Source: a virus (taxonomy: Duplodnaviria; Heunggongvirae; Uroviricota; Caudoviricetes). From it: a DNA stretch of 64,000 nt. Below the pieces are notes generated by a model. That model saw only the letters and a program-made list of their open reading frames with translations, did no database searches and was not told the origin of the DNA. The position numbers and the translations under genes were made by a program. Positions 1 through 64,000 of the stretch are shown here, piece after piece. The stretch is taken from IMG/VR virus record IMGVR_UViG_3300027628_000007. One strand, given 5' to 3'. Position 1 is the stretch's first letter. Every line of letters begins with the position of its first letter.

Positions 1-286
1 GACACCAATCTTCAATATATCTGTCGATATTACCTAATTCAAATACCTCTTCTGAAAGGAATAAATGTGTCATACGCATACCATGTATTGGTGTTCCCAC
101 TGGCATAATCACAATTCTATCCCAATTTTCAAATGCAAACTCATGAATATTGCGTGTCTGCTTTTCATATTTCAAACTCGTTCCTTTTTCTAAGATAGTT
201 GTTTTCAATGCGTTAATCATCTTTTCTTTTGCAGTGAAGCTTGCAAGGTCATTCACAGAATATAAAACTAAAATACTTTCTCTCAT
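1..286 (-). CDS. hypothetical protein, 3-prime end truncated by window edge (ATG at 286..284, frame continues to position 1)
   Basis: Manual translation of the minus strand gives MRESILVLYSVNDLASFTAKEKMINALKTT...IVIMPVGTPIHGMRMTHLFLSEEVFELGNIDRYIEDWC with no stop before the edge. The start overlaps the stop of the upstream gene (TAATATG). Confidence 0.5.
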   Translation of the reverse strand, partial: MRESILVLYSVNDLASFTAKEKMINALKTTILEKGTSLKYEKQTRNIHEFAFENWDRIVIMPVGTPIHGMRMTHLFLSEEVFELGNIDRYIEDWC

Positions 287-287
287 A

Positions 288-581
288 TTATTTCTCCATT
301 TCTACAATCTCAATTTGAGTGTTATTGATAATCCATTCTCTAGATTCATCACTAACTGTATCATGCAGTACAGCTTTCTCAACTGTAGACCCTTTAACTT
401 CAAATGTAAAGTTCTGGTTGATACGCAAAACTGTAATCCTTTGGTCAATACCTCTCATCTTGTTATAAGGTATCTGACTGCCAACGATAATGGCAACGTT
501 ATGCTTAATAGCATAACGCACCATTTCTAAATCTCCATCGACTTTTTCCTTTTTACCAAATAGTCGTTTGAAGAAGTTCAT
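288..581 (-). CDS. hypothetical protein (97 aa)
   Basis: ORF track; compact minus-strand gene array; start overlaps the stop of the upstream gene. Confidence 0.6.
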   Translation of the reverse strand: MNFFKRLFGKKEKVDGDLEMVRYAIKHNVAIIVGSQIPYNKMRGIDQRITVLRINQNFTFEVKGSTVEKAVLHDTVSDESREWIINNTQIEIVEMEK

Positions 582-838
582 TATTCCACAACCTCAATAG
601 ATGGTACTAATAGATATTCAGTATTCTTTGTAACTAATTTAACTACATTTCTATGAATGAAAACATCCTCTATAGTGGATGTTTCGACAACCATTAGTGC
701 ATCTTCTACATTCACTAATTTTGCAGTGCTACCAATCAGCATTGATTCAATGAAATATCTACGTGCTTGTCGTCTTTCATTTCTAATCTCATTACCTAAT
801 CTATCATACATACCTTCAATACGATATACTAACTTCAT
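581..838 (-). CDS. hypothetical protein; start moved to the internal ATG (MKLVYR...) 5 nt after the ligase stop, preceded by GGAGAG
   Basis: The ORF-track start at 934 would overlap the ligase gene by 92 nt. The internal ATG at 838 has a good RBS. Confidence 0.5.
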   Translation of the reverse strand: MKLVYRIEGMYDRLGNEIRNERRQARRYFIESMLIGSTAKLVNVEDALMVVETSTIEDVFIHRNVVKLVTKNTEYLLVPSIEVVE

Positions 839-842
839 ACTA

Positions 843-2150
843 TCACTCTCCATAGTTAATGTCTTCAATGCCTTTATCATGTCGAATACCTTTGAATACA
901 GGGAAACGAAGTGACAGTTGACCAGTTTTCTCATCTGTTGATTCTTCGAAGAATTGTACTTCGATGATTTTTCCTACAATCTCATCTGGATTGTTGATGA
1001 ATTTTTGACGTTCATCAATTGTAAATCCACTACCACAACCTACTAAATTACCTTTATACTCAACATTAATACGACCTAGCAATCCTTCAAATTGACCGTC
1101 AATAGATTTCTCTACACTCATACATAGAAGGTCTGCTGTCTTAAATTTCTTGACTTTTAATAGACCGTCAGTACGTTTGTTGAGATATAAACCATCAGCA
1201 GTGTTGACCATTAATCCTTCATGACCGTTCTCTTCTACCCACTTCATGAAGTGTGCAATCATTTCTTTATTTGTTCCTTCATACAATACTGGTAGAATAT
1301 GGATATTAGCTTGACCTGCTACATGTTGTTCTAGCACGCCCAATTGATTTCTACGCTTCTCATATGTAAGTTTAGATTTTCCATCGTAAAACTCTGCTAC
1401 TGGTAACATATCAAAGATATGAAACTCTAAATCTTTCTTTTCACCATCTTTACGCACAACCTTTTGTGTAGCTCTGAATAGCTTATCAGATGGTAAGTTC
1501 TCTGTATTGATAAGTAAAAGCTCTCCATCATATACATATCCTTCTGGTAGATTCATAAACTGTGCTTCTAAATCAACCATGTCAAAGATTGGTTGCCCTT
1601 GACGTGTGAAGAATTTAATTGTATTGCCTTCACGAATCGCAACACATCGGTTTCCATCCAGTTTAAGAGTGATAAAGAATTTACCTGTTACTTTCGCTTC
1701 TTTCTTAGCAAATGATTCTGCTAACATTACAGCGAATGCAGGAATCGTACCTTTGCCGTAAATCTTATTTACAGTCTTTTCAGAGATTCCAAGTTTTAAA
1801 TCCTTTGTTACAAACTTCTTGATAAACTCTGCAATATGTTCTTCATGCTTATTAGCAAACTCTTGAATCATATGTATAGTAAAATCACGACCACTATTGT
1901 TTTCTTCTACATATGTAAGTAAGTGGTTAAAGTCTTGGATTGGTTGATAGTTCGCATCGCCTTTCAACACAATTTCTTTACTCATCTTCTTAGTTGAGAT
2001 ACCTGTTGTGATGAATGAATTAAGAAGGAAGTTTAGGGCTTTGAGAATATCCTCATCACCCTTATGTCGTTTTAAGATAGCTTCCTTACCTGTCTTTGCA
2101 GACGTTTCTTGTAGCTGTGAAAATACACCATAGATTTTATTGATATCCAA
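843..2150 (-). CDS. ATP-dependent DNA ligase (T4 gp30-like)
   Basis: Motif I KLDGNR (adenylation lysine), motif V EGLMVN...LLKVKK. The N-terminus INKIYGVFSQL...KEAILKRH resembles the T4 ligase N-terminus. Apparent TTG start. Confidence 0.85.
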   Translation of the reverse strand: MDINKIYGVFSQLQETSAKTGKEAILKRHKGDEDILKALNFLLNSFITTGISTKKMSKEIVLKGDANYQPIQDFNHLLTYVEENNSGRDFTIHMIQEFANKHEEHIAEFIKKFVTKDLKLGISEKTVNKIYGKGTIPAFAVMLAESFAKKEAKVTGKFFITLKLDGNRCVAIREGNTIKFFTRQGQPIFDMVDLEAQFMNLPEGYVYDGELLLINTENLPSDKLFRATQKVVRKDGEKKDLEFHIFDMLPVAEFYDGKSKLTYEKRRNQLGVLEQHVAGQANIHILPVLYEGTNKEMIAHFMKWVEENGHEGLMVNTADGLYLNKRTDGLLKVKKFKTADLLCMSVEKSIDGQFEGLLGRINVEYKGNLVGCGSGFTIDERQKFINNPDEIVGKIIEVQFFEESTDEKTGQLSLRFPVFKGIRHDKGIEDINYGE

Positions 2151-2168
2151 AATTCAATTACCCCTTTA

Positions 2169-2774
2169 TTATTTATTTCGTTTTGTTGTGATTAGTTCAT
2201 CCACTAATCCATAGTTGAATGCATCTGTTCCAGAGAAGTACCAATCAGAATGATATTTGTTTTTCTCATCCATGATATGTTTTGGAAGATTGGACACAGA
2301 TAGCAAGTACCCATCATATGTATCTTGAAGATTTTGAATCTCAACTAAATCATCTTTTAATTGAGTTAGTTTTCCATGAAGACCTGTTGCAACCTCATGG
2401 TACATGAATCGTGCCATTGGGTGAGCAAAGCGTTTGTGACCTGCTGAAAAGATTACTAATCCTGCACTCATTGCTTTGCTGTAGCAGTATGTGTAAACTG
2501 GTGTTTCAGATGAGTCAATCACTGCTGTTAATCCAAATCCGTCATATGCACTTCCACCATATGAGCTAACAGTTAAATGGATTGGCTCACGCACATAGCT
2601 AGGGTCTTCTTTCTGTTTCTTATCATCGTGGCGATTAACTGCTAGAATACCAGTGACGATATCTTTAACAGAGGATTCAGTAACATTTTCATTCAAGATG
2701 AAATCACGTTTAATCGTAGATGTTGATGCCTTTGTCTCTTGGTTTTTAGTCTCGTTATTTGTATTGTTTGTCAT
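2169..2774 (-). CDS. ClpP-family (S14) serine peptidase homolog
   Basis: GxAxSAG-type nucleophile context (KAMSAGLVIFSAG) and an MYHEV segment corresponding to the ClpP MIHQP histidine region. Confidence 0.65.
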   Translation of the reverse strand: MTNNTNNETKNQETKASTSTIKRDFILNENVTESSVKDIVTGILAVNRHDDKKQKEDPSYVREPIHLTVSSYGGSAYDGFGLTAVIDSSETPVYTYCYSKAMSAGLVIFSAGHKRFAHPMARFMYHEVATGLHGKLTQLKDDLVEIQNLQDTYDGYLLSVSNLPKHIMDEKNKYHSDWYFSGTDAFNYGLVDELITTKRNK

Positions 2775-2810
2775 ATTACATTCCCCTTTATCATATAGTT
2801 TAGTATGGTA

Positions 2811-3104
2811 TTAGTTTTGATGTTCTCTGAATGGTTCTGGTTTTACAGTGGCTCTATCAATATTGCTTGACCTAAGGATTAACTCTTCACCAGTTGGAGA
2901 TTCAGTACCAAACCATTCACGCTGTTCAAGCAGGGTGATAATTCTATCAGATGCTTCATCTGCATTCTCCCAATTAACTGCAAGACCCTCTACATAACTA
3001 CCGTCTTTCATTGCAAAGATAACTATGTAGTCAAAGGTCGGCTTAACCTCTTCAATTTTCTCTTCTTCCTTTTTACCAAACCACTTTTTAAATGTTTCAA
3101 TCAT
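2811..3104 (-). CDS. hypothetical protein (97 aa)
   Basis: ORF track; RBS present. Confidence 0.6.
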   Translation of the reverse strand: MIETFKKWFGKKEEEKIEEVKPTFDYIVIFAMKDGSYVEGLAVNWENADEASDRIITLLEQREWFGTESPTGEELILRSSNIDRATVKPEPFREHQN

Positions 3105-3116
3105 TCCAATTCCTCC

Positions 3117-4115
3117 TTAGTGTGCTAGAGTATCTGCTTCACGCAGTAACTCTAGTTTGTCAAACATATCTTTTCCTACTTGTTTCATAAGCTTGTCACG
3201 ATTAGCTCTTTCATCAAGTAAGTACATATGAAACTGAATCAGAGTTGTTGCTTGATGTATAAATGCGGTATTAAATCCTAGTCGTTTAAGGACATGCACT
3301 GCTAGTTGAGCAGAGACATGTTCATGACCAATGAAGTTTGCATATCTAGATGGCTCACCTTTACGATTCTTAAAGTTCTTACAGAAATGCTTACCTGTAT
3401 CATGGAGCATCGCAACCCACAACATAAGCTCTTTATCTTGACCATGATAGTTATTGAATACATAGTCGTAAACGTGATATGTATGACGGCTTACAGAGAA
3501 TGCGTGATACTTTGAATCTTGTGCCATATCTAAGATGTATATGAATATTTCTGGAATAACTCTTGCAAGTTCCTCCATGATTCTGTATCCCATGTTATTT
3601 AACATGACTTGCTTAGTTATGTATTCTCTTTGAGCTTCTGGGAAGTTCTTATCTACAAAGCTGTAATCAAACTCAATCTCATCCCAACCTTCACTAAAGA
3701 TAGGTACTTGAAGATTTTTGTACATCTTTTTAATCACATCATATGGTACAGTTCTTTCTCTCACATGATTGAATGTTACTGCTGTTTTGAATGGAGTTGT
3801 CATGTAAACAACTTTCTTATGTACGCCTTTAGGTAATTGTTGCAGTAATCCTTTTCGCTTCTTACGACTGATATTAGTAGCATCATAGATTACGCTTTGC
3901 CCATCTTTCAACGCTTTCTTTGTACGTTTCGCCATTTCTTGGAAAATCATTGCAGGGTCGGCTTGGTCATTAACATCTCCATGAATCTCTTGTCGAAGAT
4001 TGTCAGATGATAACCAAAGTGCATCATCCCCATTTTCATTTGCATATGTGGACTTCCCAGATGCAGGAAGACCCACTAGCATTGTAAATGTTGGTTTAAA
4101 GATTTCGATTTCCAT
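3117..4115 (-). CDS. bifunctional polynucleotide 5-prime kinase (P-loop) / HD-domain phosphoesterase (RNA/DNA end-healing enzyme)
   Basis: N-terminal Walker A GLPASGKST followed by an SSD catalytic Asp context, as in T4 Pnk-type kinases. C-terminal HD signature (H...HDTGKH...GHEH...D). Confidence 0.7.
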   Translation of the reverse strand: MEIEIFKPTFTMLVGLPASGKSTYANENGDDALWLSSDNLRQEIHGDVNDQADPAMIFQEMAKRTKKALKDGQSVIYDATNISRKKRKGLLQQLPKGVHKKVVYMTTPFKTAVTFNHVRERTVPYDVIKKMYKNLQVPIFSEGWDEIEFDYSFVDKNFPEAQREYITKQVMLNNMGYRIMEELARVIPEIFIYILDMAQDSKYHAFSVSRHTYHVYDYVFNNYHGQDKELMLWVAMLHDTGKHFCKNFKNRKGEPSRYANFIGHEHVSAQLAVHVLKRLGFNTAFIHQATTLIQFHMYLLDERANRDKLMKQVGKDMFDKLELLREADTLAH

Positions 4116-4171
4116 TTAATCACTCCTATGTATGTATTATATCATTATTTTTTGTTTTTGTGCAAGCATTT

Positions 4172-5449
4172 TTATTCTGTTGCTGATTCTTCTTCTTCAA
4201 TGTCAAGGACATCATCTGCTTTAATGATACCTTCTAAGACTTTGAAGTTAAATGACTTCTGTTTGAATGCAGAGAATTTCTCTCTGTTCTCAATACGTAC
4301 AATTACACCTTCACGTAAATGTGTTTTACCGATTGGGTCTGCACCATCTACATGAGCGTTTACACGTTTCATCAAGTCATCAGCAGTTGTAAACTTAAAT
4401 GAATCTAACTCTGGGCAAATCTTAACTCCCATTTGTTCACAACGAAGTTTAACTAAGTGCCAAGGGTACTCAACAACCTGTCCATCTTCGTTCGTCATTG
4501 TCATGCGGTATACATAAATATCGCTTTGACCTACTCCACAACCGTATGTAAATCGTGTCTTATCGCCATATGTCTTGATAAACTCTTTATCTTTCGTTTT
4601 CTTATTATCGCATTCTGGCATAATAAGTGTATCTTGGTTTACATATCCTACAACTTCATAGAATACTTCTTCACCTTTATGTAATTTACCGTCAAAGAAA
4701 TCATGCCATTGCTTTCTAAACTCGTTGCTACCGTAGTAACCGCCACCAAATTGCGTAGTGTTTAAAGTCACACGTCTAGTACCTGTTACATAATCCCAAA
4801 CTTTTGTTGGCTTAGTCTTGATGCCAATCTTATTTAAGAATTTAGCAAACTTTGATTTATGCTCTTTGACTGTGTGAGCAGTACGTTGAGATGTTCCATG
4901 AAGTTTTAAAGAGATTACACAGTCATCGCCTTCTTTGAAGCTACGAGTATTGTAAGCTAGTTGAGCTGTATCAATATGCTGTTCAAAGAATGGGTAATTA
5001 ACCACATCTTCTTTCTTTTGCTTCTCTTTGTTCTTGCCTTGTGGCATATCTTTTCGTGGTTTAGACTTTGGTACATACTTCTCACAGATTACCACACCTT
5101 TTAAGATATCAATTGTGTCACCCTCTTTAAGAGTATCAATTTTGACAAACTTTGCAAGAGATGTGATTGGCATGAATAAACCATCTGATTTCTCTCCACG
5201 TAAACGGATTGTAGTTACATGACGCTTTTCGTCATCTAAGTAACCGCCTTGTGTACGAAGTAATTTGTTTTCTTCCGCATATTCTAGACCTAATTTACCG
5301 TCTGTAGGGAAGTAAACACCTAAGTCTCCTTCTTTTACATCTAAGCTAACAATTACATCGTTACCGAATAGTTCTGCAACTTGTAATCTATCTGCATTAG
5401 AATGCTTTCGTAGTTTTTTAACAGTTGTAATATAAGCTTGGTAAGCCAT
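4172..5449 (-). CDS. RNA ligase, Rnl2-like nucleotidyltransferase domain with N-terminal OB-like domain
   Basis: Motif I KLHG (the KxHG form is typical of Rnl2/RNA-editing ligases), motif III FYEVVG, motif IV EGVIVR, motif V KQKSFNFK. The window already has a separate DNA ligase. Adjacent to the Pnk-HD gene. Confidence 0.7.
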   Translation of the reverse strand: MAYQAYITTVKKLRKHSNADRLQVAELFGNDVIVSLDVKEGDLGVYFPTDGKLGLEYAEENKLLRTQGGYLDDEKRHVTTIRLRGEKSDGLFMPITSLAKFVKIDTLKEGDTIDILKGVVICEKYVPKSKPRKDMPQGKNKEKQKKEDVVNYPFFEQHIDTAQLAYNTRSFKEGDDCVISLKLHGTSQRTAHTVKEHKSKFAKFLNKIGIKTKPTKVWDYVTGTRRVTLNTTQFGGGYYGSNEFRKQWHDFFDGKLHKGEEVFYEVVGYVNQDTLIMPECDNKKTKDKEFIKTYGDKTRFTYGCGVGQSDIYVYRMTMTNEDGQVVEYPWHLVKLRCEQMGVKICPELDSFKFTTADDLMKRVNAHVDGADPIGKTHLREGVIVRIENREKFSAFKQKSFNFKVLEGIIKADDVLDIEEEESATE

Positions 5450-5502
5450 TTAACAACACTCCTTAATGTTTTTTTATTTGTTTGTTTCAACCTTATGAAT
5501 TT

Positions 5503-5531
5503 ATTATATCATTATCTTTTGCTCTTGTCTA
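5503..5531 (-). promoter_or_regulatory. sigmaA-type promoter, family copy (TAGACA-17-TGaTATAAT), upstream of RNA ligase gene
   Basis: Plus-strand text attata-tcattatcttttgctcttg-tctaca; minus strand reads -35/-10 with conserved spacer. Confidence 0.6.
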
Positions 5532-5750
5532 CAAAAAAAGAAAAGTTTTTTATTTTTCTTTTTTATTTTCTCTATCTTACGAAAATTAACCAACATAGAC
5601 CGATGGAAAATAGAGCTATTAGTGCACCGTATCCTAAGAAACATATTATAAAAAACATTACTTTAAGATACTCTTGCCACAACTCACGCATGACAATCAC
5701 CTCCCATATTTTTCTTTATTGTAGCAAAAATTGGATTAGAAGTCAATACT

Positions 5751-6620
5751 CTAATCCAATAATTTTGATAAATCTACGACACCATATCCTAAGTTATAGC
5801 TGTGGTCATGATTACCCATATTCATAATTTTCTCTTTTACTTGTGCAGGTGTTAACTCAATACCTTGATTACGGTTGTGAGAAATAAGCAATGCGATTGC
5901 TCCTGCTACTAATGGTGAAGCCATAGATGTTCCAGACATCCTAGCATACTTGCCATCTTTAAATGTGCTTAATACATCAATTGCAGGTGCAGAGATATCT
6001 ACTTGTGGTGCTCTATTAGAGAATGGACAATGATTTAAATCTTTGTCAACTCCACCTACTGCAAATACTTCATCCATAAATGCAGGATAATCCACTTCTG
6101 GCAATCCCATATTTCCTACTGCACATACAATCTTAATTCCTTGTGCATGAGCTTCTTCTAATCGTTCTTGAAGTCGTACTGGAAGACCTCCACGAACGCC
6201 TAGACTCATACATAATACATCTACTTTGAAGTTGATAGCTAATGTAATTCCATCCATAACACTCGCCATACTGCCTTCGCCTTTTTCGTCTAATACTTTT
6301 GCAATATATAAATCAACATTAGGTGCAACGCCTGTCTTCGCACCTGCAATTAATCCTGCAACATGAGTTCCATGACCATACTCATCTGTGATATCATTTG
6401 TTTTTTCAAACATATTTATACCGTACTTGACTTTTCCTTTTAGGTCTGGATGGTTCTCATCCATTCCAGTATCAATCACCATAACTTTAACGCCTTCGCC
6501 TTTTGTTTTCTTCCAAGCTTCTTTGACGTTAATAGCTTTTAAACTCCAATCAAGCCCTTTGGGTAATTTATCCAATACTTCAATATTCTTAGTTTCATTT
6601 TGTGTCATCATATGTTGCAC
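5751..6620 (-). CDS. subtilisin-like serine protease (peptidase S8)
   Basis: Catalytic triad contexts VIDTGMD (Asp), HGTHVAG (His), GTSMASP (Ser). Confidence 0.9.
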   Translation of the reverse strand: MQHMMTQNETKNIEVLDKLPKGLDWSLKAINVKEAWKKTKGEGVKVMVIDTGMDENHPDLKGKVKYGINMFEKTNDITDEYGHGTHVAGLIAGAKTGVAPNVDLYIAKVLDEKGEGSMASVMDGITLAINFKVDVLCMSLGVRGGLPVRLQERLEEAHAQGIKIVCAVGNMGLPEVDYPAFMDEVFAVGGVDKDLNHCPFSNRAPQVDISAPAIDVLSTFKDGKYARMSGTSMASPLVAGAIALLISHNRNQGIELTPAQVKEKIMNMGNHDHSYNLGYGVVDLSKLLD

Positions 6621-6624
6621 ACTC

Positions 6625-6900
6625 CTATTTGCTTTCTTTGATTGTTACAGTTCCTTCCATAACTCCATATGTACTATCTTCTTTAAACTTATAAGTCTCT
6701 GCTTTATCTTGTTCTGTCATTGGACGTGTAAGATACCAAAGAGCAGATTCTTTCCATGTGATATTAACTAGCTTTTCACCTTTAGGGAGATTGACTGTGT
6801 AACTTCCACCAAAACTCTTCGCTCCTATTTGACATCCAGAAAGACCTACTAAACCTGCAATTGCTGTTAATCCGATTAAAAACTTTTTCATCATAATCAC
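6625..6900 (-). CDS. lipoprotein (signal peptide with lipobox LSGC)
   Basis: MIMMKKFLIGLTAIAGLVGLSGC: hydrophobic h-region followed by Cys. Confidence 0.7.
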   Translation of the reverse strand: MIMMKKFLIGLTAIAGLVGLSGCQIGAKSFGGSYTVNLPKGEKLVNITWKESALWYLTRPMTEQDKAETYKFKEDSTYGVMEGTVTIKESK

Positions 6901-7523
6901 TCCTTATCAGTATCTAGCGGTGCTAGTAATTTAAATTCACTCTTTAAACTATTGTAAATTGGTTGGAAGAATTTCTTAATTGTATCCCAATCCTTCATAG
7001 CCATAACACTTCCTAAGAAACGGTTTGCACATTCGTAATCTACGATTCTACCATGCTTTGCAATTTGAATCCCAAACATCAAGATTCTGATTGAATGAAA
7101 CATGCTCTTTTTGCCGATATAATCTTCACCAATCGCTAATTTCTTTTTACATTTAACAAAACTGTTAGAAGAAATCCCAGAGATATTTCTACGTAATGCT
7201 TCTAGATTTGGTTCAAAATGCTCACGATATTTACTATCTTCTTTTTGGAAGATACATTCTAGGTAGCTAATATGTTGCTCTTTAATCTTCTTAATAAACA
7301 GTGCTTCGCTTACTACGTGAATAGAGACATCATCACGCTCAAACGTATAATCAAGTTCTAGGTCATGACTGTCTGCAACAGCCATGAAATCATAATCTGA
7401 ATCCGCATTGTCAGTTCCGTAGACCCTAGAGCCATACGGATAGATTGCCAATAGTTTTTCATTAATGTTTCTTTTTGTTTCCCACATGTTATCACTCCTA
7501 TAGTTGACCCATTGCGTAGTCAT
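6897..7523 (-). CDS. minimal nucleotidyltransferase (Pol-beta superfamily, MNT-like)
   Basis: hGS...G...SDYDF motif (IYPYGSRVYGTDNADSDYDFMAV). Confidence 0.65.
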   Translation of the reverse strand: MTTQWVNYRSDNMWETKRNINEKLLAIYPYGSRVYGTDNADSDYDFMAVADSHDLELDYTFERDDVSIHVVSEALFIKKIKEQHISYLECIFQKEDSKYREHFEPNLEALRRNISGISSNSFVKCKKKLAIGEDYIGKKSMFHSIRILMFGIQIAKHGRIVDYECANRFLGSVMAMKDWDTIKKFFQPIYNSLKSEFKLLAPLDTDKE

Positions 7524-8217
7524 AATGTTCTTTTAATTTAATGAAGTCTTTCTCATTTCCTCCCATATCTGGGTGATGCTTTTTAGCTAATTTTCTGTAA
7601 GCTTTTTTGACATCATCTTTCGTTGCCCCTCTAGACAATCCTAAGAATTTCAATGCAGAATCAAGTCGAGATGTGTAAGATTGCTGTTGAGTTTGACTGT
7701 TGAATCCACGACTATATTGTTGCTTTTGTCGTCCAAAGAAGTCTCTATAAATTCTTTCCCATTCTTCATTCGTTCTTCTATCCTGTTCCTCATACATCTT
7801 TCTTCTTCTCTCTTCCTGTCGTCTTCTTTCTTCTGCTTTCATTCTTTCCCATTCTCTTTGTATTCTCTCACGCTCTGCACGCTGTTTTCTCATGTATTCC
7901 TCATGCTCACGCTGTTTAGCTTCACGTTCTGCCTGCCTACGCTTTTCTTCCTGTTCCCATTGTATCTCTCGACCCTCTCTGCCTACGTTATGTATAATTG
8001 TTAGGTTGCCTAGAATAATAGGTATCCAGATAAACATAGAAAGCGTAAAGATAGCGGATGATACAAAGAATATAGAGAAGATATGTAAGATAAAGAATAT
8101 CATAGGTGTAAACGTTGCAATGAAACTCTCATTAGCATCCATTGCAATATCGTATTTCTTAGCACTTCCATTATACAGATGGTAATAAAACCTAAACATC
8201 GAAAAATATTTCTTCAT
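7498..8217 (-). CDS. membrane protein with Arg/Glu-rich linker and C-terminal J domain (DnaJ-like, HPD motif)
   Basis: C-terminus KKAYRKLAKKHHPDMGGNEKDFIKLKEHYDYA; two TM helices near the N-terminus. The track start at 8247 is TTG; the ATG at 8217 with AAAGGAGTG is preferred. Confidence 0.75.
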   Translation of the reverse strand: MKKYFSMFRFYYHLYNGSAKKYDIAMDANESFIATFTPMIFFILHIFSIFFVSSAIFTLSMFIWIPIILGNLTIIHNVGREGREIQWEQEEKRRQAEREAKQREHEEYMRKQRAERERIQREWERMKAEERRRQEERRRKMYEEQDRRTNEEWERIYRDFFGRQKQQYSRGFNSQTQQQSYTSRLDSALKFLGLSRGATKDDVKKAYRKLAKKHHPDMGGNEKDFIKLKEHYDYAMGQL

Positions 8218-8246: not shown

Positions 8247-8275
8247 ATTATATCATTATCATTTATGTTTGTCCA
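8247..8275 (-). promoter_or_regulatory. sigmaA-type promoter (TGGACA-17-TATAAT), upstream of J-domain gene
   Basis: Conserved spacer ...AAATGATAATGA TATAAT. Confidence 0.6.
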
Positions 8276-10742: not shown

Positions 10743-10771
10743 AATATATCATTATCTTTTGTTTTTGTAAA
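10743..10771 (-). promoter_or_regulatory. sigmaA-type promoter (TTTACA-17-TATATT)
   Basis: Family spacer CAAAAGATAATGA. Confidence 0.5.
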
Positions 10772-14079: not shown

Positions 14080-14108
14080 ATTCTATCATTATCTTTTACG
14101 CTTGTCAA
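14080..14108 (-). promoter_or_regulatory. sigmaA-type promoter (TTGACA-17-TAGAAT)
   Basis: Family spacer. Confidence 0.55.
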
Positions 14109-14148
14109 TGGGCAAAAAAGAAAGAAGAGAAAAAATTCTCTTCTTAAA

Positions 14149-15001: not shown

Positions 15002-15030
15002 ATTATACTATTATTTTTTGTTTCTGTCAA
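15002..15030 (-). promoter_or_regulatory. sigmaA-type promoter, perfect TTGACA-17-TATAAT, upstream of dUTPase
   Basis: attata ctattattttttgtttc tgtcaa. Confidence 0.7.
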
Positions 15031-15351: not shown

Positions 15352-15399
15352 ATAGTATCTCTCCTAATTTTTATTAGGCAGGAATTACCCTGCCTAATT

Positions 15400-15428
15400 A
15401 TTATATCATTATAGTTTGCTTTTGTCAA
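15400..15428 (-). promoter_or_regulatory. sigmaA-type promoter, perfect TTGACA-17-TATAAT, upstream of thioredoxin gene; 10-bp-stem hairpin (15373..15398) directly downstream
   Basis: attata tcattatagtttgcttt tgtcaa. Confidence 0.7.
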
Positions 15429-16496: not shown

Positions 16497-16511
16497 TATA
16501 TCATATCCTCC

Positions 16512-18862: not shown

Positions 18863-19320
18863 TATCCTTCAATCTCCTTCACTCGTTTAATAAATTCTTC
18901 AACATCACTCTTAGTACCATCATTCTCAAATTTGAGTAAAAGAGGTACGTTAAACTGTTTAGAAATCTTAACTCCTGCTTCTGCAAACATTGGTATCCAG
19001 TTGCGATTACCGCTAGATGCGACAGCTTTCATATTGAGGAAGTTACCTCTTCTAAGGAATTTAGCTGTAGAGTCTGGGATATTACCCATGCCTGTTGTAT
19101 ATGTAACAAGTACAAAAGGCTCTTTTACTATTAATCCTTCTTCGATTTTGACAGCTTCTAAACCCACTTTATTGATGAATCTCTCAACGTTGCCTGTGAA
19201 GCTGTCATAGACTAGAATCATTGAATCACCCCTTTCAAGAATTAATTCGAGAGACACAACATCTTGTATCTCTCGGAATGACATACTACTAATTATATCA
19301 TTATAATTAGCTCTTGTCAA
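18862..19320 (-). CDS. nrdI: NrdI flavodoxin-like protein
   Basis: N-terminal MILVYDSFTGNVERF matches the NrdI FMN-binding signature (Y.S.TGNT.RF); located upstream of nrdE. Confidence 0.8.
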   Translation of the reverse strand: MTRANYNDIISSMSFREIQDVVSLELILERGDSMILVYDSFTGNVERFINKVGLEAVKIEEGLIVKEPFVLVTYTTGMGNIPDSTAKFLRRGNFLNMKAVASSGNRNWIPMFAEAGVKISKQFNVPLLLKFENDGTKSDVEEFIKRVKEIEG

Positions 19321-21314: not shown

Positions 21315-21343
21315 TATGCACTTATTATATCATTATTTTTTGT
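21315..21343 (-). promoter_or_regulatory. sigmaA-type promoter (TAGACA-17-TATAAT)
   Basis: attata tcattattttttgtgct tgtcta. Confidence 0.6.
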
Positions 21344-21371
21344 GCTTGTCTACATCTTTTTTAAATCTTTT

Positions 21372-23537: not shown

Positions 23538-23567
23538 ATTATATCATTATCTTTAGCGTTTAGTCAA
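23538..23567 (-). promoter_or_regulatory. sigmaA-type promoter (TTGACT-18-TATAAT) upstream of topo II A subunit gene
   Basis: Family spacer ...AAAGATAATGA. Confidence 0.5.
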
Positions 23568-26374: not shown

Positions 26375-26403
26375 ATTATATCATTATCATTATCTATTGT
26401 CAA
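26375..26403 (-). promoter_or_regulatory. sigmaA-type promoter, perfect TTGACA-17-TATAAT
   Basis: attata tcattatcattatctat tgtcaa; immediately downstream of terminator 26413..26447. Confidence 0.7.
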
Positions 26404-26412: not shown

Positions 26413-26447
26413 TCAAAAAAGTTAAGGAATGAATTAAATCATTCCTT
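26413..26447 (-). terminator. Rho-independent terminator (9-bp stem AAGGAATGA/TCATTCCTT, 6-nt loop, T6 tract on minus strand); bidirectional in form
   Basis: Read directly from sequence; stop codon of the upstream gene lies in the stem. Confidence 0.7.
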
Positions 26448-29943: not shown

Positions 29944-29972
29944 ATTATATAATTATCATTTGTTTTTGTCAA
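29944..29972 (-). promoter_or_regulatory. sigmaA-type promoter, perfect TTGACA-17-TATAAT
   Basis: attata taattatcatttgtttt tgtcaa. Confidence 0.7.
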
Positions 29973-32204: not shown

Positions 32205-32784
32205 ATGTATCTTCCTCCTTTGGAAATTTAATATTTCTTAACGTATGTGGTATAACCAACTTCTTACCAATCTGTTCAAGTCTTATGTAGCCCTTCCTAG
32301 CAAGCGACTCTAGCATTCTCATTACTGTATCTCTATTCTTTATCTTGATACCATCTGCTAGAGCATCAATGTCAGTAGTAGTTTTCCAATAACCAACATC
32401 TGAATGCATTACTATGAAAGCGTATAGCTTGTATTCCTTCTTAGTCATTGTATCATTATCTTTTACTTTTGTCCACAACTCTTCTAAAATAAAATTGAAA
32501 TTATCACTTCTTTTTTCCATCACGTTATACCTCGGACTATATTTATTTATGAGATAGAGTTCATAGACTTTCATTTCGCTCTCACTTTGCAACTCCATGT
32601 ATTCTACGACTGCACACTCATCATAGCACTCTCTAGGAAGGTGACCTTCCTTAGAGAAGTGCTCTTGCTCTAGTCTTCGTTTCAGATTGTTAGTTCTGCC
32701 TATGTATATAATATCATTATGTTTATCTAGAAATCTGTAGACATAGAAACTATTCTTCGTCAATCTCTTCCAACAACTTCTCAA
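32188..32784 (-). CDS. GIY-YIG homing endonuclease-like protein with C-terminal winged-helix
   Basis: FYVYRFLDKHNDIIYIGRTNNLKRRLEQH (GIY...YIG...R...E/QH) and YELYLINKYSPRYN. Start approximate. Confidence 0.8.
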   Translation of the reverse strand: MRSCWKRLTKNSFYVYRFLDKHNDIIYIGRTNNLKRRLEQEHFSKEGHLPRECYDECAVVEYMELQSESEMKVYELYLINKYSPRYNVMEKRSDNFNFILEELWTKVKDNDTMTKKEYKLYAFIVMHSDVGYWKTTTDIDALADGIKIKNRDTVMRMLESLARKGYIRLEQIGKKLVIPHTLRNIKFPKEEDTYETGY

Positions 32785-34887: not shown

Positions 34888-34916
34888 CAATATACCATTA
34901 TTTTTTGCTTTCGTCA
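34888..34916 (-). promoter_or_regulatory. sigmaA-type promoter (TTGACG-17-TATATT) upstream of macrodomain gene
   Basis: Family spacer. Confidence 0.5.
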
Positions 34917-35095
34917 ACAACTTCTGCATATTCTTCTGCAATTTTTATCAAAATTTCTTCTGCTTCGTTTCTAGTAATTAAACCGTCTATGTAATCTGAA
35001 AACACACCTTTTATCTTGCGTGACAAAATAACCTTTTTCATTCTAGCAGGCGATATTTCATTCATGATGTCATCAATTCTTCCCATATAAATCAC
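34898..35095 (-). CDS. hypothetical protein
   Basis: ORF track. Confidence 0.55.
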   Translation of the reverse strand: MIYMGRIDDIMNEISPARMKKVILSRKIKGVFSDYIDGLITRNEAEEILIKIAEEYAEVVDESKK

Positions 35096-37292: not shown

Positions 37293-37321
37293 AATATATC
37301 ATTATCTTTATCGCCTGTCAA
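37293..37321 (-). promoter_or_regulatory. sigmaA-type promoter (TTGACA-17-TATATT); -35 embedded in CTGTCAACAG
   Basis: aatata tcattatctttatcgcc tgtcaa; follows terminator 37327..37370. Confidence 0.6.
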
Positions 37322-39726: not shown

Positions 39727-39825
39727 AATGAAATTCCTCCAATTAAATGATTATTTTTTGCTTTTGTTATAATATATAATAATTATCACAAAGAGTGATG
39801 AATTATATCGAATTTAGTCAAATGC

Positions 39826-40360: not shown

Positions 40361-40389
40361 ATTATATCATTACTTTTTGCGTTTGTCAA
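40361..40389 (-). promoter_or_regulatory. sigmaA-type promoter, perfect TTGACA-17-TATAAT
   Basis: attata tcattactttttgcgtt tgtcaa. Confidence 0.7.
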
Positions 40390-43688: not shown

Positions 43689-43717
43689 ATTATATCATTA
43701 TTATTGATGCCTGTCAA
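43689..43717 (-). promoter_or_regulatory. sigmaA-type promoter, perfect TTGACA-17-TATAAT
   Basis: attata tcattattattgatgcc tgtcaa. Confidence 0.7.
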
Positions 43718-46386: not shown

Positions 46387-46415
46387 ATTATATCATTATC
46401 TTTGATGTTTATCAA
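46387..46415 (-). promoter_or_regulatory. sigmaA-type promoter (TTGATA-17-TATAAT) upstream of RecA-like gene
   Basis: Family spacer. Confidence 0.55.
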
Positions 46416-47578: not shown

Positions 47579-47665
47579 AAACTTATTTCCCCCAATTATG
47601 TAATTATTTTTTGCTTTTATGGTGAAGGAAAAGAATTTTTAACTCTTTCCCCATCAACAATACTT

Positions 47666-48471: not shown

Positions 48472-49467
48472 TTATTGCGGATATGTTTGTCGAATGTGCT
48501 GTAAATCAAGGAATCCTTTCAGATTGTGATAAGACTTCATATTGTATCGGTCTGCTACAATCTTGATGTCGTCTAAAGACAACTCGTTATTACCTTTGAT
48601 AAGCTCATTCGCAAAGTACATCATACCGCTTCTTTGTACGTATTTAGCTGTAAGCTTATCGAATCCTAAAGCTTCTGCCATATTTTTCATTCTTCTATAT
48701 ACTACGAATTTATCTACTGGTGCATTTAGGCTTTTCTCAATTTTAGTTAAAGAAGCTCTGATTACATAATCATTATTAGCAAGGTCAGTATATTTTCTGA
48801 TTCTGTCCTGTGCAACCATTTCACCATTCTTCTTCATATAAGTTTTTTGAGCAATTGCCCCTTGGATTAATTCTAAAGTTCTGTCGTCAACATCTAAAAA
48901 TCTTTCTGTAAATTTAACTGGAAAACCATTGTCATCTTCTTTTAAAGTATTTACAAGGTGCAGGCGTTTATTTTCAAAATCAACATCTTCTATTTTTAAG
49001 TTGCGGATTTCACTCATTTGTTTACCGCCTACTCCTACAAATGAAAGTCGTAAGATTACTGAATCTTGATAGTTTGCACATCTGTCTTCATATCTTCTAA
49101 GACCTTTTTCAGTAGTATAAACTTCTTCATTTGTCAAATACTTTTCAAAGTCAGTAGGTTTAAGTACAGCTAACACATTCTCTTTAATGTGCCCATGCTT
49201 TACACACCAGTTCAAGTAACTTGAAATGATACGTGCGTAAGTTTCAATGGTATTTCTATTATTGGATTTGAAGTCATACATAACAGTTTCCAATTGACTA
49301 AAAGTAAACAACCTAACATCTTTTTCCAAAGCTTCCTCATGTTTAGCAGTGTATTTAAAGATGCGTTCGTAGCTGAAAACAGTACCTTCATTAATTTCAC
49401 TTAGAAATTGTTCCTTCAATCCATCTTTATCAAATATAGAATTATCATTTGTGTTTGTCATAGTCAT
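48472..49467 (-). CDS. tyrosine-recombinase (integrase)-fold-like protein, divergent
   Basis: SAM-like N-terminal domain; RLSFVGVGGKQMSEIRNLKIEDVDF resembles the integrase Arg-I box; C-terminal KYVQRSG...KSYHN could be the Arg-II/Tyr region. The track start at 49521 is probably too long; the ATG at about 49467 has AGGAGTGG. Confidence 0.4.
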   Translation of the reverse strand: MTMTNTNDNSIFDKDGLKEQFLSEINEGTVFSYERIFKYTAKHEEALEKDVRLFTFSQLETVMYDFKSNNRNTIETYARIISSYLNWCVKHGHIKENVLAVLKPTDFEKYLTNEEVYTTEKGLRRYEDRCANYQDSVILRLSFVGVGGKQMSEIRNLKIEDVDFENKRLHLVNTLKEDDNGFPVKFTERFLDVDDRTLELIQGAIAQKTYMKKNGEMVAQDRIRKYTDLANNDYVIRASLTKIEKSLNAPVDKFVVYRRMKNMAEALGFDKLTAKYVQRSGMMYFANELIKGNNELSLDDIKIVADRYNMKSYHNLKGFLDLQHIRQTYPQ

Positions 49468-49726
49468 CACCAAAACCACTCCTTGTTTTATAAGTCTTAT
49501 TATAGTTATACCCACTCGCAAGGGTTTTTATGCATATAATCATTCGATTAAATTCTAGCAGTTTTGTCGAATCGTGTCAAATGACGTAAAATTGTCTCAA
49601 TTGAGACACTTTTGAGTGGGGTTAAGACTCCATAAAACATGACTTTTATCAAGATTTTCATCTGTCAAAAAGCACCTCTATTGACAGGCTTTTAGAACAT
49701 GACCTCATATGGGCTTTCTGTAGCAA

Positions 49727-49755
49727 ATTATATCATTAATTTTGTTGCTTGTCAA
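49727..49755 (-). promoter_or_regulatory. sigmaA-type promoter, perfect TTGACA-17-TATAAT, followed by a 200-nt leader rich in inverted repeats
   Basis: attata tcattaattttgttgct tgtcaa. Confidence 0.65.
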
Positions 49756-51378: not shown

Positions 51379-51407
51379 ATTATATGATTAACTTTAGCTT
51401 TTGTCAA
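51379..51407 (-). promoter_or_regulatory. sigmaA-type promoter, perfect TTGACA-17-TATAAT
   Basis: attata tgattaactttagcttt tgtcaa. Confidence 0.7.
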
Positions 51408-52167: not shown

Positions 52168-52196
52168 AATATATCATTACTTTTGTCGCTTGTCAA
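52168..52196 (-). promoter_or_regulatory. sigmaA-type promoter (TTGACA-17-TATATT); -35 within CTTGTCAACAG
   Basis: Family spacer. Confidence 0.6.
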
Positions 52197-56253: not shown

Positions 56254-56279
56254 TCCTTAAATGATTATTATTTGCTTTT

Positions 56280-56308
56280 ATTATAATCTGCTGTCAAAGG
56301 ATTGTCAA
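56280..56308 (-). promoter_or_regulatory. sigmaA-type promoter TTGACA-17-TATAAT with second TGTCAA and ATCTGCTGTCAAAGGAT element in spacer
   Basis: attata atctgctgtcaaaggat tgtcaa. Confidence 0.55.
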
Positions 56309-56363: not shown

Positions 56364-56392
56364 AATATACCATTATCTTTTCTCTATGTCAA
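56364..56392 (-). promoter_or_regulatory. sigmaA-type promoter (TTGACA-17-TATATT) at end of nadR
   Basis: Family spacer. Confidence 0.55.
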
Positions 56393-59118: not shown

Positions 59119-59147
59119 ATTATATGGTTATCTTTTGTTTTTGTCAA
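59119..59147 (-). promoter_or_regulatory. sigmaA-type promoter, perfect TTGACA-17-TATAAT
   Basis: attata tggttatcttttgtttt tgtcaa. Confidence 0.7.
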
Positions 59148-59492: not shown

Positions 59493-59521
59493 ATTGTAGC
59501 ATGCTACTATTCTGCTGTCAA
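59493..59521 (-). promoter_or_regulatory. palindromic-class promoter: TTGACA(-35 inside ATCTGTTGACAGCAGAAT)-17-TACAAT
   Basis: attgta gcatgctactattctgc tgtcaa; drives small Zn-ribbon gene. Confidence 0.55.
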
Positions 59522-61708: not shown

Positions 61709-61858
61709 TTATCTATTGACTTTATGATAATCTTCTGCTATTTCATACAGCTTAATCATATCACCAACTGTACTTGCAGTCCTGTCATACCATACAACTT
61801 CATTATACTTATTACACCAATCTGCATCGCACATCATACCAATTTTAGTTTCGTACAT
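61709..61858 (-). CDS. small hypothetical protein (about 49 aa), not in ORF track
   Basis: RBS GAGAGAGGttctATG. Coordinates approximate. Confidence 0.35.
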   Translation of the reverse strand: MYETKIGMMCDADWCNKYNEVVWYDRTASTVGDMIKLYEIAEDYHKVNR

Positions 61859-62042
61859 AGAAACCTCTCTCATGCTATCACCCTTTCATAAAAGTAAACT
61901 TTTATCTTGTAATTTTATCTCCAATTAAACTAATTGTATATAAAATTACTAAAACACCAACTAGAATATATATTGGTAAATCATGCTCTAAATACTTAAA
62001 ATAATCCACTATTTAATCACCTCATAAAAGTAAAATTTTATC

Positions 62043-62216
62043 CTACTCTACAAATTCCCTTTTATTTATGCTTAAAATTACGCTATCATCTGTATCTGCA
62101 CCAATTTCTATTTCATGGTCTTCTGTCAATATAGTTACGCCATATGGCTGAATATCAACACTCTCAATCTTTTCTCTGTTAAGGATATTTTTTAGCTCTT
62201 TCTCTTCATAATTCAT
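62043..62216 (-). CDS. small hypothetical protein (57 aa), not in ORF track
   Basis: Leader GAAAGGGTGATAGTATG shared with neighbouring genes. Confidence 0.4.
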   Translation of the reverse strand: MNYEEKELKNILNREKIESVDIQPYGVTILTEDHEIEIGADTDDSVILSINKREFVE

Positions 62217-62228
62217 ACTATCACCCTT

Positions 62229-62426
62229 TCATCTCTTCTTTAATCCGTCTGGCTTGAATTTCAATTTCTCATCATCATTCAAATAATGCTTAAATCCTCC
62301 CTTGTAATAAAGGCAAATGTTGCCTGCCTTTGTTACACTATAAGCAACAGGAATTAACCTTTCTTTCTGCATATGATATTCCTCACCCTGTAATCTCTTC
62401 ATATTATCATTTCCTAATCCATCCAA
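62229..62426 (-). CDS. hypothetical protein
   Basis: ORF track. Confidence 0.55.
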   Translation of the reverse strand: MDGLGNDNMKRLQGEEYHMQKERLIPVAYSVTKAGNICLYYKGGFKHYLNDDEKLKFKPDGLKKR

Positions 62427-62647
62427 TGTATCACTGCAAACTTTCCATTATGCTTTGTAGTAGGATTATACAATTCTTCCTGTACCTTTTCATAATTGTT
62501 GAAGTTATCCGTTTCATCAATGACTACATCTATACCTCCCCATTCTTTCTTTACCTGCTCAATATTATTATCTGTAATGGTTTCTATGTAGTATCTCATA
62601 TGGTTGTTTGTAAACAGTATAACCACCTTTTTATCCATACCTCTCAT
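62414..62647 (-). CDS. hypothetical protein
   Basis: ORF track. Confidence 0.55.
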   Translation of the reverse strand: MRGMDKKVVILFTNNHMRYYIETITDNNIEQVKKEWGGIDVVIDETDNFNNYEKVQEELYNPTTKHNGKFAVIHWMD

Positions 62648-62814
62648 ACTATCTCCCCCTTGCGTACCATTCTCTAAATGGATTTTGACTTAAAACTACT
62701 AACCCACCATCTTTAAATCTAACAATCAATTCGCCTGCATGACTTATTTTAACCTCCTTTACTTCTCTATTCTCCATTAACTCTTTAATTCCCTCTATTT
62801 TAGACTTATCCATA

Positions 62815-63246
62815 TCAACCCTCCTTAATCTCTCTTAAATCCTCTTCTAGCGTTTCTACAGCGTATTCAAGTCTATCATTATGTACTTTATGTAAGGCAT
62901 CGTCAACATAGCCTTCAAATCGTTCATAAGCATTGATAATTCTTTTAAATTTATTTGCATTAGTTTCTGTAAATTTAGCCATTGCCAACAATCCTCTTCG
63001 ACTAAATGTTTCAGCACTGAATAGCACGCACTTTCCTAATATTCCTTTGATATCTTCGCTTGTATAGAAGTGGTGGTAAGACTTGTTAAATTCGTAAAGC
63101 TCATGCGGTTGAGGATGAATTTCTGGTCGATTCTTTAATACTACCATTTCCCCATTAACCATAACAGCTCCAAAGCTTACAACATCTATCAACATTTTAT
63201 TTGGTAAAGACCATCTAAGTTCTTGTACTAACTCTTCTCTATTCAT
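62815..63246 (-). CDS. hypothetical protein
   Basis: ORF track. Confidence 0.6.
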   Translation of the reverse strand: MNREELVQELRWSLPNKMLIDVVSFGAVMVNGEMVVLKNRPEIHPQPHELYEFNKSYHHFYTSEDIKGILGKCVLFSAETFSRRGLLAMAKFTETNANKFKRIINAYERFEGYVDDALHKVHNDRLEYAVETLEEDLREIKEG

Positions 63247-63476
63247 TTTAACCCCTCCACTAATCCTTTTATTTTTAAGATTTGCTCCTTTGTGTAACCC
63301 CTTGAATCCCTTAGGTTTAATGAGCCACCCATACTTTTGTAAACAGGAAGCCCAACCTTCTTTAGCTTATTGTATACTTCTTCGCTCAATCCATATGTGT
63401 CAGAGATTCTATACTTTCCGCTCATCGCCTTATAAACTACGAGTTTCATATTAACTCCCCCTTTAAAGCATACCAT
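63243..63476 (-). CDS. hypothetical protein
   Basis: ORF track. Confidence 0.55.
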   Translation of the reverse strand: MVCFKGGVNMKLVVYKAMSGKYRISDTYGLSEEVYNKLKKVGLPVYKSMGGSLNLRDSRGYTKEQILKIKGLVEGLK

Positions 63477-63624
63477 ATTTTACAAGATTTTGCCCCTTCA
63501 TCATAGCAATTCTTGCAGTTTTGTAGAATACTTCCAATTCATTTTCTGTAAGCTTGCGACCTAGTTCTGCTTCTACTTTTTCAAGTGTCTTATTCTTTAT
63601 TGTAGTGTATTCGTAGATATCCAT
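63463..63624 (-). CDS. small hypothetical protein (53 aa), not in ORF track
   Basis: RBS AAGGAGttgagcgaATG. Confidence 0.4.
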   Translation of the reverse strand: MDIYEYTTIKNKTLEKVEAELGRKLTENELEVFYKTARIAMMKGQNLVKYGML

Positions 63625-63670
63625 TCGCTCAACTCCTTGTTAAAATTAAGATTTTATTAACTATAATCCT

Positions 63671-63699
63671 ATTATAAACCCTTAATTATCTGCTGTCAA
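63671..63699 (-). promoter_or_regulatory. palindromic-class promoter: -35 inside ATCTGTTGACAGCAGAT, 17 bp, TATAAT
   Basis: attata aacccttaattatctgc tgtcaa cagatttt. Confidence 0.6.
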
Positions 63700-63705
63700 C
63701 AGATT

Positions 63706-63870
63706 TTATACTATTTTTACATGCCATTTACTTACTTCCCAAACTTCGTAATCATCATCTCTTACGTATAAAATTTGACCTCCTACTAAAATATCAACAA
63801 CCAAACCTTCTTTACGCCCCTCATCCGTAGGGAACTCAACTCTTGTTTCAAATACTTCAAACTCCATATC
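63706..63870 (-). CDS. small hypothetical protein; start moved to the ATG with perfect RBS (AGGAGGAAtagatATG)
   Basis: The track start at 63918 lacks an RBS; the internal M (MEFEVFETRV...) has AGGAGG. Confidence 0.5.
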   Translation of the reverse strand, partial: DMEFEVFETRVEFPTDEGRKEGLVVDILVGGQILYVRDDDYEVWEVSKWHVKIV

Positions 63871-63878
63871 TATTCCTC

Positions 63879-64000
63879 CTATAAGCTCATTTGGTCTACA
63901 TGACCGCATTGTGTGCATTTAATACTGATTTCGTCTGGATGTGTCTGCTTGGCTTCAAAATAACCCATATGATGGCGATTAATAGTGTCTGCAAACAACA
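63879..64000 (-). CDS. hypothetical zinc-ribbon protein, 5-prime end truncated by window edge
   Basis: Open frame from the edge to the TAG at 63879: ...EISIKCTQCGHVDQMSL. Confidence 0.4.
   Translation of the reverse strand, partial: LFADTINRHHMGYFEAKQTHPDEISIKCTQCGHVDQMSL

Follow-up and report, generated by a model that had tools for sequence, protein, structure and literature searches.

The sequence and its relatives

A stretch of 64,000 nucleotides (hereafter the window) from IMG/VR virus record IMGVR_UViG_3300027628_000007 (Caudoviricetes) was analysed for a promoter-like element that recurs upstream of its genes. Coding within the window is confined to one strand and occupies approximately 88% of the sequence. 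Gene functions were transferred from the annotation of Bacillus phage Kirov by synteny: DNA ligase, RNA ligase, dUTPase, thioredoxin, ribonucleotide reductase, two topoisomerase subunits, primase, helicase, single-stranded DNA-binding protein (SSB), recombinase and NadR, with many small proteins without assigned function. A tRNA scan found no tRNAs in the window and an Rfam scan found no Rfam families.

A 10-kb piece of the window was 88% identical to Kirov, and the same piece also matched Tsamsa-like giant siphoviruses of the B. cereus group (Thrax1-4, PBC2, Tsamsa, Nate, Skywalker and others). The window was colinear along its full length with Kirov ~80.5-145 kb, and 85% of it was covered at 70-90% identity, so the phage is related to Kirov but distinct from it. 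This similarity identifies the phage as a Kirov/Tsamsa-like giant temperate siphovirus of the Bacillus cereus group, and the window as its block of replication and nucleotide-metabolism genes. Tsamsa-like phages are temperate and probably plasmid prophages (PMC9703825, PMC7685451). Promoters are nowhere mentioned in the genome papers on these phages that were consulted (including PMC9703825 and PMC7685451), and literature searches found no description of the promoters reported here.

A recurrent consensus promoter on the minus strand

The element consists of a -35 hexamer TTGACA, a 17-bp spacer that usually ends in an extended -10 TG, and a -10 hexamer TATAAT, with a predicted transcription start ~7 nucleotides (nt) downstream. 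Perfect TTGACA-N17-TATAAT sequences were found 14 times on the minus strand of the window and never on the plus strand (0.26 expected); a fifteenth pair of perfect hexamers was separated by 15 bp. With at most one hexamer mismatch at 17 bp, 26 minus-strand sites and no plus-strand sites were obtained, and 21 of these hexamer-chosen sites had one common spacer consensus. A 29-nt matrix was built from those 21 sites and applied with a cut-off of at least 20 bits. It returned 28 sites in the window, all on the minus strand, and a single other site at 10-20 bits; the maximum in Markov-simulated sequence was 14.8 bits. A preliminary description of the window had counted about 28 copies, all on the minus strand, at least 13 of them perfect at both hexamers, and both counts were borne out.

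The 28 sites, hereafter class I, are given below with the matrix score and, where noted, the corresponding Kirov coordinate (TG, extended -10 dinucleotide).

59119..59147 (-): TTGACA-AAAACAAAAGATAACCA-TATAAT, no TG, 21 nt before a small open reading frame (ORF; Kirov gp100 homologue); 34.4 bits, Kirov orthologue 139189
56364..56392 (-): TTGACA-...AAAAGATAATGG-TATATT, -35 overlapping the last codons of a NadR-like gene; 26.6 bits, Kirov 136936
52168..52196 (-): TTGACA-AGCGACAAAAGTAATGA-TATATT; 33.7 bits, identical 29-mer in Kirov at 132449
51379..51407 (-): perfect hexamers, no TG; 35.9 bits, Kirov orthologue 131215
49727..49755 (-): perfect hexamers, TG, upstream of the recombinase region; 34.7 bits, Kirov 129559
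49433..49461 (-): doubtful class I-like ATGACA-...-TATATT, intragenic, within the first codons of the MrpR-like recombinase gene; 24.0 bits
47666..47694 (-): perfect hexamers, TG, 87 nt before the SSB gene; 36.5 bits, identical in Kirov, 127492
46387..46415 (-): TTGATA-...-TATAAT, before a P-loop NTPase gene; 33.2 bits, Kirov 126221
43689..43717 (-): perfect hexamers, TG, before the helicase/primase module; 34.6 bits, Kirov 123564
40361..40389 (-): perfect hexamers, TG; 37.8 bits, the top score in the window, Kirov 120241
39742..39770 (-): weak or orphan copy ATAACA-AAAGCAAAAAATAATCA-TTTAAT, ribosome-binding site directly after; 21.0 bits, identical in Kirov, 119623
37293..37321 (-): TTGACA-...-TATATT, TG, before a SpoT-like (p)ppGpp enzyme gene; 35.5 bits, Kirov 117174
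34889..34917 (-): TTGACG-...-TATATT, TG, before a macro-domain gene; 30.0 bits, Kirov 115056
32447..32475 (-): TGGACA-...-TACAAT, within a GIY-YIG endonuclease ORF; 29.2 bits, Kirov 112617, inside gp152
29944..29972 (-): perfect hexamers, no TG; 34.5 bits, Kirov homology ends just upstream of the -35
26375..26403 (-): perfect hexamers, TG, with a class II-like CTG-TTGACA-ATAGAT (class II is described below), preceded by terminator-like hairpin 26424-26447, before a nucleotidyltransferase gene; 34.4 bits
25554..25582 (-): TTGACA-...-TATACT, TG, before a topoisomerase/gyrase B-like gene; 33.7 bits, Kirov 105305
23538..23567 (-): TTGACT-18 bp-TATAAT, TG, before a topoisomerase/gyrase A-like gene; 22.1 bits in the 17-bp register, Kirov counterpart 103293 with a 17-bp spacer
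21324..21352 (-): TAGACA-...-TATAAT, TG, long leader before a prohibitin/lipoprotein gene; 35.9 bits, Kirov 101079
19292..19320 (-): perfect hexamers, TG, before the NrdI/ribonucleotide reductase genes; 36.7 bits, 12-bp leader hairpin 19248-19275
15400..15428 (-): perfect hexamers, TG, before a thioredoxin-like gene; 35.9 bits, leader hairpin 15373-15398
15002..15030 (-): perfect hexamers, no TG, before the dUTPase gene; 30.5 bits, identical in Kirov, 95269
14080..14108 (-): TTGACA-...-TAGAAT, TG, directly after terminator-like hairpin 14122-14145; 36.0 bits
12967..12995 (-): perfect hexamers, no TG; 35.0 bits, Kirov 93361 differs at variable spacer positions only
10743..10771 (-): TTTACA-...-TATATT, TG, before a RecBCD-inhibitor-like gene; 31.5 bits, Kirov 91014
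8247..8275 (-): TGGACA-...-TATAAT, TG, before a DnaJ-domain gene; 33.9 bits, Kirov 88225
5503..5531 (-): TAGACA-AGAGCAAAAGATAATGA-TATAAT, before the RNA ligase gene; 37.2 bits, Kirov 85836
4136..4164 (-): TGCACA-...-TATAAT, TG, before an ATPase gene; 28.4 bits, Kirov 84467

The class I spacer was present at 12 of the 14 perfect-hexamer sites. The hexamers and the spacing of 17 +/- 1 bp are those of housekeeping sigma70/sigmaA promoters, site 23538..23567 being the only copy with an 18-bp spacer. In an independent generic promoter scan, weak matches (9-10 of 12 positions) occurred at chance (81-85 found, ~81 expected); matches at 11-12 of 12 positions were nearly all on the minus strand, and nearly all were class I sites. 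The B. cereus phage Bastille, used as a control, had 4 near-consensus sites in 100 kb and none with the class I spacer. A high density of consensus promoters is thus not general among large B. cereus phages; host preferences cannot be derived from so small a control.

Position and orientation

The sites follow one another at about one per 2 kb along the replication and nucleotide-metabolism genes, 15-120 nt before a start codon with a ribosome-binding site. Twenty-six of the 28 are intergenic or run into the 3' end of the preceding ORF by no more than 20 nt; the other two are the doubtful copy at the start of the recombinase gene (49433-49461) and the copy in the GIY-YIG endonuclease gene (32447-32475). 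An equal frequency of the motif inside coding sequence, which had been named beforehand as speaking against promoters, was thus not found, even though most of the window is coding. At 7 nt after the -10, the predicted -1 position is a pyrimidine in 20 of 28 sites and the predicted +1 a purine in 22.

In the complete Kirov genome, the 29-nt matrix found 40 minus-strand and 5 plus-strand sites, the plus-strand copies standing before the tRNA cluster, before an annotated sigma factor gene and at two places in the structural block. Sites were co-oriented with the local genes in the window (28/28), in Kirov (45/45) and in phage vB_BcoS-136 (36/36). This co-orientation in three genomes, with the intergenic position close to start codons, lends indirect support to the sigmaA-type identity first proposed for the elements.

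Composition of the spacer

The spacer of the 26 hexamer-only sites held 10.1 bits, against 1.36 +/- 0.27 bits for random sites. The hexamer-only set gives the unbiased figure, because the set of 28 was chosen by a matrix that includes the spacer. Within the 28 sites, spacer positions 7-8 were AA and positions 12-14 were TAA in every copy, T stood at -15 in 27 copies and G at -14 in 21. The conserved spacer elements are AA at -23/-22 and TAATG at -18 to -14. The TRTGn of the Gram-positive -16 region was not found, since position -17 is A in 28/28 copies, with T at -18. The class I motif and its spacer are without dyad symmetry.

The preliminary description had given the spacer an almost invariant core, preceded by N5 after the -35 and completed by the extended -10 TG. 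The conservation stands, but as a degenerate consensus: only 2 sites have the 13-mer CAAAAGATAATGA exactly, and TG is present at 21 of the 28 sites and absent from the remaining copies. Four variable nucleotides, not five, follow the -35 (N4 instead of N5): the literal N5 pattern matched one site, and the correct register seven. With the N4 register, the strict class I pattern also matched at least 115 IMG/VR stretches; most come from relatives of Tsamsa-like phages, and many hold several copies.

Several known binding sites were compared with the spacer and rejected. A MerR-type spacer-bound promoter needs a 19-20-bp spacer with a dyad operator; here the spacer is 17 bp and has no dyad. The Bacillus Fur box has the 7-1-7 consensus TGATAATnATTATCA, an inverted repeat; AGATAATGATATAAT fits it at 9 of 14 specified positions and lacks the inversion in its second half. 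The IHF core WATCAANNNNTTR has 2 mismatches on the bottom strand and was rejected by eye as a poor match, and a MotA-box-like reading was considered by eye and set aside as poor or unsupported.

Conservation among related phages

The window and Kirov were compared over 26 orthologous pairs of sites. Differences were found at 38 of 260 variable spacer positions, 2 of 182 conserved spacer positions and 7 of 312 hexamer positions (conserved against variable spacer positions, Fisher p = 1e-7). Information content drops to background just outside the 29-mer, and the flanks of the copies are non-homologous. When the consensus was searched by BLAST against 50,697 phage records, 22-37 places per genome were found only in Tsamsa-like phages, and 1-5 in all others. 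The high-copy set includes vB_BcoS-136, which belongs to a different genus and infects Bacillus cohnii, and de novo analysis of its genome yields the same spacer, A..aCAAAAAATAATGA. The constancy of the conserved positions, the consensus common to two genera and the lack of flanking homology together indicate that the spacer is old and that it is kept by purifying selection.

The recent duplication of a promoter module, offered at first as one explanation of the conserved spacer, is contradicted by these data: homology does not extend beyond the 29-mer, the consensus is kept in another genus and only the variable positions drift. A broader historical explanation would be that the elements are cassettes spread by duplication or by short recombination patches, with a spacer conserved by descent and not by function. 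There is a precedent in the PeSL cassettes of the T4-type phages RB49 and phi1, which are likewise repeated, highly conserved, intergenic sigma70-like promoters (PMC2839356), and of the 25 segments in which the window and Kirov are non-homologous, 5 have an end at the edge of a class I site (e.g. 8275, 29972, 37321). Breakpoints are nevertheless not enriched, as 5 of 47 segment ends lie within 60 nt of a site, compared with 3.1 expected at random and 12.8 for random intergenic placement. PeSL cassettes combine a promoter with a stem-loop and have ~100 bp in common, whereas class I copies have only 29 nt in common, without a common stem-loop or flanks, and hairpins stand beside few of them. Since, in addition, drift is limited to the variable positions and the consensus persists across genera, spread of this kind is an improbable explanation.

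A second class of promoters

The consensus promoters of Kirov and vB_BcoS-136 form two groups that are split by gene block. Class II has the form (a)ATCTG-TTGACA-(G)CAGA(T); its -35 is bracketed by inverted arms of 5 bp, and it occupies blocks of small early genes (Kirov 140-157 kb, vB_BcoS-136 2.4-26.4 kb). Class I stands before the replication and nucleotide-metabolism genes and the tRNAs, before the putative sigma factor gene and at a few places within the late block. At Kirov 16369(-), a class II copy faces a gene annotated 'transcriptional regulator', beside the sigma factor gene. Class II copies in the window are:

63671..63699 (-): aatCTG-TTGACA-GCAGAT...TATAAT, arms 5/5; Kirov 143958; not a class I copy
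59493..59521 (-): aatCTG-TTGACA-GCAGAA...TACAAT, arms 4/5; the early-type class begins here
56280-56308: nested class II copy

The 28 class I copies span 4-59 kb of the window and class II is found from 59.5 kb, so that the supposed single domain of 64 kb contains the boundary between two promoter regimes. Of the proposal that the window forms one massive early/middle transcription domain, the single-strand coding holds (in Kirov, the minus strand carries every gene from 63.6 to 156.8 kb); the unity of the domain does not, given the two promoter classes, and 'early' was an assumption. Class I promoters would start or boost right-to-left transcription along the replication and nucleotide-metabolism genes, with few intrinsic terminators between them. 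Since terminator-like hairpins are few in the window, the promoters probably add to transcription that reads through from upstream and do not mark off isolated units. The suggested layout is that class II would serve the small early genes and the regulator gene, and class I replication, the tRNAs and the annotated sigma factor gene, with the late genes next.

The annotated regulators were searched against Pfam. Only an HU family protein (Kirov gp027) and the MrpR-like recombinase were recognised; Kirov's annotated 'sigma factor' and 'transcriptional regulator' gave only sub-threshold helix-turn-helix (HTH) matches. For the sigma factor gene product, gp024 (16498-16920, 140 amino acids), this makes the annotation that would underpin a late-gene cascade a weak one. 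The presence of this small gene is what could suggest that the class I elements are read by a phage-encoded sigma factor instead of host sigmaA. We regard this as very improbable, because the hexamers and their spacing are the exact housekeeping consensus, gp024 is itself preceded by a class I promoter and its HTH matches are below threshold.

How the spacer may be read

We infer sigmaA dependence, start sites, promoter strength and the mode of spacer reading from the sequence. The reading that we consider rather probable is that the 28 elements are working host sigmaA promoters whose spacer is selected and is mostly read by RNA polymerase itself. Polymerase would read it through the extended -10, the '-16' and '-22' regions and the geometry of the spacer, and class I would then be a lineage-specific class of very strong promoters, distinct from class II. 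The -16 and -22 regions are reported to affect the strength of B. subtilis sigmaA promoters (PMC6570832), and the conserved spacer positions coincide with them. A comparable case was found in a metagenomic contig, L104 (IMGVR_UViG_3300028805_000058, 146 kb), where ten promoters within 8 kb (700-7800) have their own long word, aaaaaaatgcTTGACAAAATAAAAAnnTTATGATATAATaaatacataagataaag. This word has AA at -23/-22 and ATG at -16 to -14, as class I does; to Tsamsa-like phages, the 8-kb stretch had no similarity by blastn or tblastx. Promoter words specific to one lineage seem to be common in AT-rich phages. In T4 early promoters, the extra consensus beyond the standard elements is thought to optimise polymerase binding (PMC2988021). 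The position of the conserved bases at polymerase contacts, the lack of dyad symmetry, the likeness to L104 and the T4 precedent together favour a spacer that is read by polymerase.

Other observations weigh on the other side. In the same genomes, class II promoters lack the class I spacer and have hexamers just as good, so polymerase needs no such spacer. The canonical Gram-positive TRTG has T at -17, whereas class I has A there and T at -18. A few copies retain the spacer without a -35, directly on a ribosome-binding site. Lastly, ~10 bits in the spacer exceeds what polymerase preferences usually explain.

A possible but less probable alternative is that the elements are sigmaA promoters whose conserved spacer is a tag for a second, phage-encoded factor. 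Such a factor might keep ~45 dispersed lytic promoters silent in a plasmid prophage, as a repressor, or might set class I and class II apart in time, as a shut-off, activating or polymerase-modifying protein. The temperate and probably plasmid-prophage lifestyle of the family (PMC9703825, PMC7685451) speaks for it, as dozens of consensus promoters must then be silenced globally. So do the existence in Kirov and vB_BcoS-136 of two classes with equally consensus hexamers in front of different gene blocks, the inverted arms ATCTG-N7-CAGAT that bracket the class II -35 like an operator, the information content of the spacer, the orphan spacer copies without -35, the limitation of the multi-copy motif to the Tsamsa-like family among the phage records searched, and the HU/IHF-type and HTH proteins encoded by this family. 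Against such a factor, neither a dyad nor a regular repeat is seen in the class I spacer, whose conserved bases lie at known polymerase contact positions and whose general features recur in L104, which is dissimilar to Tsamsa-like phages in the 8-kb stretch. Full-consensus promoters require no activator, and no candidate was identified, the annotated regulators being weakly supported by Pfam.

More tentatively still, the two classes could be two sigmaA promoter regulons distinguished outside the hexamers, class I by its spacer (AA...TAATG) and class II by the ATCTG-N7-CAGAT dyad; these tags would be recognised by phage-encoded proteins, or by a master repressor of the plasmid prophage, so as to time lytic development or to silence ~60 dispersed consensus promoters in lysogeny. 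If true, this would be a spacer-embedded operator network, and any factor that reads the spacer would represent a new way to control many consensus promoters together.

Comparison with other promoter systems

The bacteriophages P1 and L5 provide a model for the second-factor alternative only: the C1 operators of P1 and the 'stoperators' of mycobacteriophage L5 are short asymmetric sites, many of them across a temperate phage genome, with an orientation fixed relative to transcription; the prophage repressor binds them, and they can stand away from promoters. Class I sites are likewise asymmetric, many-copy and fixed in orientation. Unlike the P1 and L5 sites, nearly every class I copy lies within a complete consensus promoter, with 2-3 orphans in the window.

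SPO1 is a large Bacillus phage with sigmaA-dependent early promoters and an HU-like protein, TF1, which prefers hydroxymethyluracil DNA. By analogy, the phage studied here may resemble it in being a large Bacillus phage with sigmaA-type promoters and an HU/IHF-family protein that could bind promoter regions. It differs in that the HU-like gene lies outside the window, and neither hydroxymethyluracil nor such binding is known for this phage.

A close parallel is provided by the early 'uber' promoters of T4 (UP/-35/TGn/-10; PMC2988021), which are also dozens of near-consensus promoters for the host main sigma factor in one large phage and also have extra conserved positions beyond the standard elements, as found here (10.1 against 1.36 bits). 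Unlike T4, the phage is temperate and its host Gram-positive; no clear UP element was seen, with none of positions -25 to -1, counted from the -35, exceeding 0.4 bit on an AT-rich background; class I precedes replication and nucleotide-metabolism genes and tRNAs, not only immediate-early genes; and no Alt-like modification is known for this phage. As far as the Gram-positive extended -10 or '-16 region' TRTGn (Voskuil and Chambliss) is presented in PMC6570832, class I shares with it T at -15 (27/28), G at -14 (21/28) and the A-rich '-22 region'. The canonical T at -17 is replaced in class I by A (28/28), with T at -18 (TAATG); class II promoters of vB_BcoS-136 and the L104 promoters do use TRTG.

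Promoters of this kind are known from large phages such as T4, and they appear to be undescribed for the Tsamsa-like family, in which the second class has gone unnoticed. The sites given here provide a first promoter map for ~20 sequenced giant siphoviruses of Bacillus cereus/anthracis. The 29-mer is a compact and probably very strong promoter for Bacillus engineering, and its selected non-canonical bases (A at -17, T at -18, AA at -23/-22) form a natural data set on the tuning of sigmaA promoters by the spacer.

Leaders, orphan copies and other promoters

The stable hairpins 19248-19275 and 15373-15398 are located at the very start of the predicted transcripts of nrdI/ribonucleotide reductase and thioredoxin, respectively; in Kirov, the stems are the same and the loops differ. 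A leader word, A(C/T)AAGGTTGA(G/A)A(G/C)A, is found ~8-20 nt after the -10 downstream of 40361-40389, 21324-21352 and 5503-5531, well before the annotated start codons, and also occurs in Kirov (19394+) and vB_BcoS-136.

Spacer copies with a degenerate -10 and without a usable -35 (AAAGCAAA(A/T)AATAAT..) were found at 47595-47623, 56256-56284 and 39742-39770. They sit on or beside a ribosome-binding site, one of them inside the SSB leader. Kirov has similar copies without -35 at 119623, 158690, 162250 and 156515.

An ORF of 39 codons (5572-5691), which is not annotated in Kirov, encodes a hydrophobic peptide and has a good ribosome-binding site. It has its own promoter at 5718-5746, overlapping a 12-bp hairpin (5730-5760), and the spacer of this promoter, TCTAATCCAATTTTTGC, is also found in the distant vB_BcoS-136 at 121444.

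A consensus promoter outside class I, TTGACA-CGATTCGACAAAACTGC-TAGAAT, is located at 49552-49580; the MrpR-like tyrosine recombinase gene (48472-49521) lies downstream of it. The promoter is flanked by the inverted hexamers ATTCGA...TCGAAT, follows a small hairpin (49593-49608) and is kept in Kirov at 129385.

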